A DNA stretch of 7,461 bases from a virus (Duplodnaviria; Heunggongvirae; Uroviricota; Caudoviricetes), in IMG/VR virus record IMGVR_UViG_2778261152_000006, one strand, 5' to 3'. This document shows, one piece after another, positions 2,524-7,461 of this stretch. The notes below the pieces were generated by a model. It did not search any database, was not told the DNA's origin, and saw nothing but the letters and a program-made list of their open reading frames with translations. Made by a program: the position numbers and the translations under genes. The stretch's first letter is position 1. Each line of letters begins with the position of its first letter.

Positions 2524-2740
2524 ATCAATAACTCTCAACTGTAAGGGTATTGAAATGTTAACACAAGCTCTCGCTGTAGGGGTATAGCCGAGACCACCGA
2601 AGCCCGGAGGTGGTGAAATAAAACCGGGCACAACACGAAGGCGCATTTCCGATATCCATAAAGAGTCGGTCTTGTCTGTTAAATTTAAATGGTGGAGTGC
2701 GCCTCCGGTTGTAAATAACGACATTGCTGTGTGTAGTCCT

Positions 2741-2792
2741 GGCGGCATCAGTTTTTTTCTTGAAGTTCGGCTGATGTCCGCCCTTTTTAAAG
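2741..2792 (+). terminator. Candidate plus-strand intrinsic terminator (tL-like) in the sieB-kilR intergenic region
   Basis: GGCGGCATCAG (2741-2751) pairs with CTGATGTCCGCC (2771-2782): 11 bp with one bulge and a GC-rich base, followed by CTTTTTAAA. The 19 nt loop is unusually large, which lowers confidence. Confidence 0.3.
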
Positions 2793-2963
2793 TGAATTTT
2801 GTGATGCGGTGAATGCGGCTAAGCGCACGTGGCACAGTTAAAAGTCATGTTAGTCCTTATTGGTTTGGGTGGGAAAGCCGACTGTAATTGTTAACTGGTT
2901 GCAGTCACCTGGAGGCACCAGGCACCGCATCAACAAAGTTCATTTGTAAAAATGGAGATAATT

Positions 2964-3185
2964 ATGATTGCACATCACTTCGGAACTGATGAAATACCAC
3001 GTCAGTGTGTGACTCCTGGCGATTATGTTCTTCATGAAGGCCGGACATATATTGCCTCGGCAAACAATATTAAAAAGCGAAAACTATATATTCGTAACCT
3101 GACCACAAAAACATGCATTACTGACCGCATGATTAAAGTCTTCCTCGGTCGTGATGGTTTACCTGTAAAGGCGGAGTCATGGTGA
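2964..3185 (+). CDS. kilR: KilR, Rac prophage cell-division (FtsZ) inhibitor, 73 aa
   Basis: [77 protein letters not shown] at 2954-2957, 6 nt before ATG 2964. The track ORF starts 12 nt earlier at ATG 2952, but that start lacks the SD spacing. Confidence 0.8.
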
Positions 3186-6407: not shown

Positions 6408-7086
6408 GCAACCACCAATCGCAAAAGCCGATCTGCAAAAAACCCAGGGAAACCGTGCACCAGCAGCAGTTAAAAATAGCGACGTGATTAGTTTTATTAA
6501 CCAGCCATCAATGAAAGAGCAACTGGCAGCAGCTCTTCCACGCCATATGACGGCTGAACGTATGATCCGTATCGCCACCACAGAAATTCGTAAAGTTCCG
6601 GCGTTAGGAAACTGTGACACTATGAGTTTTGTCAGTGCGATCGTACAGTGTTCACAGCTCGGACTTGAGCCAGGTAGCGCCCTCGGTCATGCATATTTAC
6701 TGCCTTTTGGTAATAAAAACGAAAAGAGCGGTAAAAAGAACGTTCAGCTAATCATTGGCTATCGCGGCATGATTGATCTGGCTCGCCGTTCTGGTCAAAT
6801 CGCCAGCCTGTCAGCCCGTGTTGTCCGTGAAGGTGACGAGTTTAGCTTCGAATTTGGCCTTGATGAAAAGTTAATACACCGCCCGGGAGAAAACGAAGAT
6901 GCCCCGGTTACCCACGTCTATGCTGTCGCAAGACTGAAAGACGGAGGTACTCAGTTTGAAGTTATGACGCGCAAACAGATTGAGCTGGTGCGCAGCCTGA
7001 GTAAAGCTGGTAATAACGGGCCGTGGGTAACTCACTGGGAAGAAATGGCAAAGAAAACGGGTGATGATGCCAACTTACTGATTTAG
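6400..7086 (+). CDS. recT: RecT recombinase, truncated by IS1: 220 native codons plus 8 IS1-encoded codons (GDDANLLI), then stop
   Basis: [32 protein letters not shown]... matches RecT up to ...WEEMAKKT. The IS1 terminal repeat then begins at 7060. Full-length RecT is 269 aa as I recall it. The ATG at 6400 overlaps the recE stop (ATGACTAA). Track ORF 6343-7086 starts at an upstream ATG that I regard as not used. Confidence 0.9.
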
Positions 7087-7114
7087 TGTATGATGGTGTT
7101 TTTGAGGTGCTCCA

Positions 7115-7390
7115 GTGGCTTCTGTTTCTATCAGCTGTCCCTCCTGTTCAGCTACTGACGGGGTGGTGCGTAACGGCAAAAGCACCGCCGGACATCAGCG
7201 CTATCTCTGCTCTCACTGCCGTAAAACATGGCAACTGCAGTTCACTTACACCGCTTCTCAACCCGGTACGCACCAGAAAATCATTGATATGGCCATGAAT
7301 GGCGTTGGATGCCGGGCAACCGCCCGCATTATGGGCGTTGGCCTCAACACGATTTTCCGCCATTTAAAAAACTCAGGCCGCAGTCGGTAA
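7115..7390 (+). CDS. insA: IS1 InsA (transposition regulator), 91 aa
   Basis: [91 protein letters not shown] is the IS1 InsA sequence. Confidence 0.95.
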
Positions 7391-7461
7391 CCTCGCGCAT
7401 ACAGCCGGGCAGTGACGTCATCGTCTGCGCGGAAATGGACGAACAGTGGGGCTATGTCGGG
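7309..7461 (+). CDS. insB: IS1 InsB (transposase frame), N-terminal 51 codons; partial at window end. Active product is the InsAB' frameshift fusion
   Basis: -1 frame relative to insA translates [51 protein letters not shown], matching the InsB N-terminus. Open to the end of the window. Confidence 0.8.
7366..7372 (+). other. IS1 A6C programmed -1 ribosomal frameshift motif (AAAAAAC) at the end of insA
   Basis: TTAAAAAAC at 7364-7372 sits in the insA/insB overlap, where the IS1 frameshift window is known to lie. Confidence 0.7.

Follow-up and report, generated by a model that had tools for sequence, protein, structure and literature searches.

The window, by which we mean the whole stretch of 7,461 nucleotides that was analyzed, was identified from its list of open reading frames and from the annotation of a near-identical segment of Escherichia coli MG1655 as the early-left region of a Rac-like prophage, read here along the plus strand. 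The genes and features on which the analysis draws are listed below; unless another source is given, gene assignments rest on the open reading frame list together with the MG1655 annotation.

Minus strand: ydaT and ydaS
1064–1483: repressor gene (open reading frame list)
About 1539–1565: candidate repressor-flanked early-left promoter, TTTACT-17-TATCCT, upstream of ydaG (read from the sequence)
Plus strand, in this order: ydaG and ydaF, then kilR, ydaE, racC, recE, and recT
Minus strand, start at 2523: sieB
2524–2963: gap between sieB and kilR, 440 bp
2677–2685, plus strand: TGtTAAATT, candidate KilS promoter of the extended −10 type, 6 nt short of the mapped start (read from the sequence)
2692–2788, plus strand: KilS small RNA (b4833), 97 nt here, one G fewer than in K-12 near the 5′ end (alignment to MG1655)
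2722, plus strand: RNase E cleavage position reported in K-12 (mapped by alignment)
2728–2737, plus strand: candidate seed UGUGUGUAGU, a single-stranded stretch 5′ of the hairpin
2741–2782, plus strand: terminator stem-loop of 42 nt, homologous to the DicF terminator hairpin
2741–2751, plus strand: 5′ arm GGCGGCATCAG, occurring once in the window
2771–2782, plus strand: 3′ arm CTGATGTCCGCC, with one bulged T (T2777)
2784–2788, plus strand: U-tract T5, preceded by C2783 and followed by AAAG, its last T being the annotated 3′ end of KilS
2784–2950, plus strand: structured, STnc100-like kilR leader (Rfam match, inverted repeat, and fold)
2964–3185, plus strand: kilR, the gene downstream, accessible only to polymerase that reads through the hairpin

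The comparison of annotations also showed that the DUF1391 gene is ydaF in Rac and ydfA in Qin. The window repressor shows no sequence relationship to K-12 RacR, which makes the prophage, by this measure, one of a different immunity type from K-12 Rac. Operator-like repeats of the form ACCCATrGGTA lie on both sides of the repressor gene (997–1068 and 1526–1565), and the repeat pair at 1526–1562, which our scan scored as a terminator, frames the candidate early-left promoter. At the far end of the window, an IS1 element (window 7060–7461, with the left inverted repeat starting at 7060 and insA at 7115) interrupts recT near codon 239, so full-length RecT cannot be made by this copy of Rac. A clean minus-strand terminator (3735–3711) lies between racC and recE. 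It corresponds to a very strong 3′ end in K-12 Term-seq (1417486, plus strand), which was recorded under each of the three conditions and is classed as antisense to racC; the transcript ended by this terminator carries no annotation.

A Stable Hairpin and a Short U-Tract Upstream of kilR

The first-pass annotation had placed a candidate tL-like terminator on the plus strand of the sieB–kilR intergenic region, and its description of the arms, the intervening C and the T-run agrees with the coordinates given above, as does the 440 bp assigned to that region; the distance to kilR, put at about 170 nt, is 176 nt from the end of the T-run to the kilR ATG (2964). The stem comprises 11 Watson–Crick pairs, with T2777 bulged and five G–C pairs at its base. 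The loop is nominally 19 nt, as first described, but the minimum-free-energy fold adds two G–U pairs and a small inner helix within it. The proposed comparison of the folding energy of 2735–2795 with shuffled sequence came out in favor of the structure, with −19.5 kcal/mol against −11.7 ± 2.4 kcal/mol in 200 dinucleotide shuffles (z = −3.3), only one of which folded as well. When all T5 runs on both strands of the window were scanned for a hairpin ending no more than 2 nt from the run, this hairpin ranked first at −18.7 kcal/mol, and sites at or below −18 were found in only 4 of 100 dinucleotide-shuffled windows. A consensus terminator scan did not call it, because the scan admits loops of 3–8 nt and the limit of 8 nt excludes it.

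The minus-strand RNA of the hairpin folds about as well (−17.1), and no T-run follows it on that strand; the terminator therefore reads on the plus strand only, and a bidirectional terminator was rejected. We also considered and rejected a leader promoter overlapping the hairpin (TTGAAG at 2760), for which there is no acceptable −10 element at a spacing of 16–18 bp. With a stable G+C-rich stem-loop and a U-tract, if a short one, directly 3′ of it, the hairpin is a Rho-independent terminator-type structure on the early-left strand upstream of kilR. Since the U-tract is short (five U, then AAAG) and the stem-loop long (42 nt), the efficiency of termination may be modest.

The Hairpin Is the 3′ End of the Small RNA KilS

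The MG1655 RefSeq record annotates the ncRNA kilS (b4833) at 1418405..1418502, on the kilR strand and between kilR and sieB. In the alignment with MG1655, two differences interrupt the identity of the region, namely the loss of one G near 2697 and, further downstream, a single substitution. The missing G falls at about 2695–2697, within a run that reads GGTGGGAG in MG1655 (KilS positions +4 to +6), and is the sole difference within KilS. The window element thus agrees with KilS both in sequence identity and in its position between sieB and kilR, and the annotated 3′ end (1418405) coincides with the fifth and last T of the run, at 2788. The hairpin is the terminator end of an already annotated small RNA, hence an element already known, and the idea of an unannotated tL terminator was rejected because the region matches, bar one G, the place in MG1655 where RefSeq annotates KilS.

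KilS was named by Bar et al. (2021), who predicted it from RIL-seq (Hfq) data as 'sieB.kilR.IGR' and verified it in K-12 by northern blot as an Hfq-dependent, stationary-phase RNA of about 98 nt with its own transcription start site, the size agreeing with RNA-seq coverage (PMC8175672). The sequence to which their probe 1 is complementary, window 2759–2781, lies within the hairpin. The K-12 start site at 1418502 (Thomason 2015, as cited in Bar et al. 2021, PMC8175672) maps by alignment to 2692, 97 nt upstream of the hairpin end. An RNase E site at 1418471, within KilS (Clarke 2014, as given in Table S6 of Bar et al. 2021, PMC8175672), corresponds to 2722, and cleavage there would leave a species of about 66 nt, similar in size to DicF. 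Upstream of the mapped start, KilS-type loci share the conserved block GGTCTTGTCTGTTAAATTTAAATGG; in one further locus (L232) homology to the window begins only about 20 nt before the KilS start. The motif at 2677–2685 is a plausible extended −10 element, from which promoter activity may be inferred.

As to the 3′ ends near 2790 on which the first-pass annotation had staked its proposal, the annotated KilS terminus at 2788 supplies one, but the curated Term-seq lists of Adams et al. (2021), which cover LB at OD 0.4 and 2.0 and M63 (exponential and early stationary growth, conditions that precede KilS accumulation), contain no end at 1418405. The KilS 3′ end consequently rests on the RNA-seq coverage and northern size of one study.

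KilS-like sequences are present in 1529 of 5426 complete E. coli genomes (about 28%), 1234 of them with at least 99% identity, and KilS is without annotation in every E. coli record among the matches listed. Five phage records, including phage Rac-SA53, also carry a KilS-like sequence at 92% identity or more.

KilS as a Diverged Paralogue of DicF

The Rfam DicF model (RF00039) matches 2728–2783 over its full length with 39.1 bits (E = 6e-6), which is below the gathering cut-off of 48. Scored with the same model, K-12 DicF reaches 76.7 bits and three further loci reach 61.1 (L137), 43.5 (L122), and 38.1 (L203), so that the scores, KilS included, appear as a continuum. When the Rac locus was aligned with the dicF–dicB region of the Qin prophage of MG1655, the two shared TGGCGG(C/T)ATCAGTTTT, then a divergent interior, then CCGCCCTTTTTAAAGTGAATTTTGTGATG, and finally a long conserved leader extending to GTCACCTGGAGGCACCAGGCAC. 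Gene order is likewise shared, since in both prophages a DUF1391 gene (ydaF in Rac, ydfA in Qin) is followed by a small RNA and then by a division inhibitor (kilR and dicB, respectively). Given these homologous flanks and the common order within a lambdoid early-left operon, KilS is, as far as sequence comparison can tell, a diverged paralogue of DicF. A dicF-like sequence in Rac may have been described earlier. The kinship goes unmentioned in the paper that named KilS (PMC8175672), and it points to testable ideas about processing by RNase E and RNase III and about the control of kilR by read-through. What the present analysis adds to an element that is itself annotated and experimentally verified in K-12 is this homology and a corrected hypothesis on silencing.

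Conservation of the hairpin was followed across loci gathered by the leader motif alone, a criterion that does not select for the hairpin. These loci yielded ten or more distinct forms of the hairpin at the same distance from the leader motif, all with a GC stem and a T5 run followed by AAAG, and the hairpin interiors and 5′ seeds have been exchanged between variant types. The outer stem is almost invariant, with one compensatory change from GGCGG/CCGCC to GGTGG/CCACC, and for this reason formal covariation is weak (one compensatory pair, with the observed score reached in 35 of 500 shuffles). Support for the structure comes, in these alignments, from the persistence of the hairpin while its interior is replaced rather than from covariation.

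At two of the loci, one in S. flexneri (L030:3236-3424) and the other at L137:5046-5234, a hairpin and leader of the DicF/KilS type are followed by isrK and C4 antisense RNAs, both matching above the Rfam thresholds, in place of kilR or dicB, which suggests that the cassette has been placed before different host-manipulating modules. In a wider generalization, KilS and DicF, along with eight or more other variants, would be forms of one modular cassette of lambdoid prophages, whose terminator base and U-tract stay constant and adjoin the base of an STnc100-like leader, while the hairpin interior and the 5′ seed are freely exchanged from phage to phage. Every prophage would thereby acquire a small RNA specificity of its own at the same site, directly ahead of a gene that manipulates the host (kilR, dicB, or isrK/C4-ant), and the terminator might be an attenuator under regulation, through which small RNA output is tied to read-through into the toxic gene. 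In this comprehensive form we consider the proposal speculative and rather unlikely.

The kilR Leader and the Candidate Seed

Downstream of the hairpin, a long-range helix between 2784–2811 and 2923–2950 closes the kilR leader and includes the U-tract. The Rfam STnc100 model (RF02076) matches 2785–2971 over its full length with 35.5 bits, below the cut-off of 47, and the fold of 2692–2970 has a z-score of −4.0. The leader is about 81% identical to the dicF–dicB spacer.

The motif of the terminal hairpin of the leader, CACCnGGAGGCACCnGGCAC at 2906–2925, occurs at no fewer than 120 loci in the genome collection and at least as many (120 or more) in the viral collection, is spread across Enterobacterales, often in two to four copies per prophage, and displays covariation from CCUGG/CCAGG to CCGGG/CCCGG. 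Among the matches listed, 231 of 269 copies of this motif have no hairpin of the DicF/KilS type upstream.

Turning to the 5′ side of the hairpin, yncL is a RIL-seq partner of KilS (PMC8175672), and the single-stranded stretch at 2728–2737 is complementary to ACUAUACACA in the yncL 5′ UTR, a pairing that is matched by 12–20% of shuffles. The same stretch is largely kept, with one or two substitutions, across KilS-type variants whose hairpin interiors differ, and it is a candidate seed through which KilS may pair with yncL. The ACUCCG anti-Shine–Dalgarno loop with which DicF pairs with ftsZ is not found in KilS, where the alignment places UUUUUUUCUUGAAG instead. In a duplex-energy test on ftsZ with 20-nt windows, KilS was not enriched, and genuine DicF was likewise inseparable from shuffles in this test, the power of which is low.

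Alternative Explanations and the Silencing of kilR

That the arms are no more than a chance inverted repeat, or a DNA-level palindrome bound by a protein and without RNA function, is extremely improbable. The arms do form a near-perfect inverted repeat and the minus-strand RNA folds almost as well as the plus-strand RNA, but the arm sequence is single-copy in the window, a site of this quality is rare in shuffled windows (4 of 100), the hairpin lies inside an expressed, northern-verified small RNA, and a hairpin persists at this position in many prophages despite the replacement of its interior. The hairpin might also be solely a protective or Hfq-binding 3′ structure, the end of KilS being produced by nuclease trimming of longer kilR-leader transcripts. 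We judge this very unlikely, since the annotated end coincides with the final U of a U5 tract that immediately follows a GC stem of −18.7 kcal/mol, the signature of intrinsic termination, and the homologous DicF end is attributed to termination (PMC9438474). Trimming does have a precedent in the second 3′ end of DicF, 19 nt downstream, which RNase III generates from the full-length transcript (PMC5069750, PMC9438474); the homologous long helix (2784–2811 with 2923–2950) is present in the window, and KilS contains an RNase E site.

A more substantial alternative, still unlikely in our assessment, develops the proposal of the first-pass annotation. In it the hairpin is chiefly a tL-type terminator of a long early-left transcript, which comes from the repressor-proximal promoter through ydaG and ydaF, and is a major cause of the silence of kilR and recET in lysogens. 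The K-12 evidence assigns the silencing of kilR elsewhere, to the repressor and to the Rho/NusG-dependent terminator trac, which lies inside racR and acts on transcripts from the racR promoter (PMC4150792; PMC12482147), and defects in Rho are lethal through kil (PMC4150792). Lowering racR expression raises the genes on either side of the hairpin, ydaF and ydaG about 40-fold and kilR more than 70-fold (PMC6765115). Moreover, the K-12 Term-seq 3′ ends on the plus strand lie upstream of the hairpin, at 1418562 (window about 2632), at 1419679 and, as a strong end, inside racR (1420148), with none listed at the hairpin (Adams et al. 2021, supplements), and the RNA known to end there starts only 97 nt upstream. 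Strand and position nonetheless fit such a role, a candidate promoter (about 1539–1565) precedes ydaG, polymerase arriving from upstream must cross the hairpin, and in Qin, at the homologous operon, the DicF terminator stops a portion of the long ydfABC transcript (PMC5069750, PMC9438474). What stands of the earlier proposal is the type of element, its strand and a K-12 RNA 3′ end at the T-run; the known RNA that ends there is KilS, from its own start site, and not the long ydaG–ydaF transcript.

The rise of kilR on lowered racR and the lethality of Rho defects suggest that the hairpin is leaky or bypassed and not the main silencer; rather than a tight block, it appears to pass substantial transcription. 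Transcripts from the KilS promoter itself may contribute to the rise of kilR RNA. The idea that the hairpin keeps kilR and recET silent is corrected in this sense, with room left for a contribution as an attenuator. Since the window repressor is unrelated to K-12 RacR, the trac data from K-12 are not directly transferable to the window prophage.

One of the K-12 Term-seq ends mentioned above, 1418562, is classed as an 'orphan' 3′ end (Adams et al. 2021) and falls, without a U-tract, directly after a candidate H-type pseudoknot at 2595–2632 on the plus strand, CCACC-GAA-GCCCGG-A-GGTGG-TGAAATAAAA-CCGGGC. A second variant of the pseudoknot (GCCTG/CAGGC) occurs in other prophages, consistent with covariation. 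The end at 1418562 may mark a stop of upstream plus-strand transcripts antisense to the 5′ region of sieB.

Proposed Role of the Element

Together, these observations lead us to regard the hairpin and U-tract as the intrinsic terminator and Hfq-type 3′ module of KilS, a small RNA of about 97 nt transcribed from its own extended −10 promoter in the sieB–kilR gap, which would at the same time form a leaky attenuator before kilR and which is a diverged paralogue of DicF; we put the probability of this reading at roughly 0.88. RNA polymerase starting at 2692 would mostly stop at 2784–2788 and release KilS, whose terminal hairpin and U-tail would constitute the usual Hfq-binding 3′ module, whereas polymerase reading through would enter the structured leader and then kilR. 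The element would in this way both make a trans-acting small RNA and serve as a leaky attenuator before kilR.

Comparison With Known Systems

The closest counterpart is KilS of K-12 Rac (b4833), which has the same locus, the same flanking genes sieB and kilR and, bar one G, the same sequence; the window prophage differs from K-12 Rac in its immunity repressor and in the IS1 element within recT, and it is from K-12 that the KilS expression data come. Among lambda-type early-left terminators (tL1 and others), the likeness consists in a terminator placed within the early-left unit of a lambdoid prophage, upstream of kil and the recombination genes. Their N/nut partner is not seen here, no N/nut antitermination system being known or found in the window, and the documented product of the window element is a small RNA with its own promoter. 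The small RNAs of 5′ UTRs that arise by premature termination (Adams et al. 2021, PMC7815308) resemble KilS in that a short RNA ends at a leader terminator and read-through yields the mRNA, although KilS itself is absent from the 3′ ends listed in that study.

DicF shares with KilS the terminator base GGCGG...CCGCCC-U5, the downstream leader, the position after a DUF1391 gene and before a division-inhibitor gene, an RNase E site 5′ of the seed, and dependence on Hfq. Its 53-nt form is reported to arise by Rho-independent termination at the homologous hairpin (Faubladier 1990, as cited in PMC5069750 and PMC9438474), with the 5′ end made by RNase E, and its 72-nt form by an RNase III cut of the full-length transcript 19 nt further downstream (PMC5069750, PMC9438474). 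The two RNAs differ in the 5′ seed and the hairpin interior, the stem of KilS is the longer one, and KilS is made from a promoter of its own, in contrast to DicF, which is excised from the ydfABC transcript.
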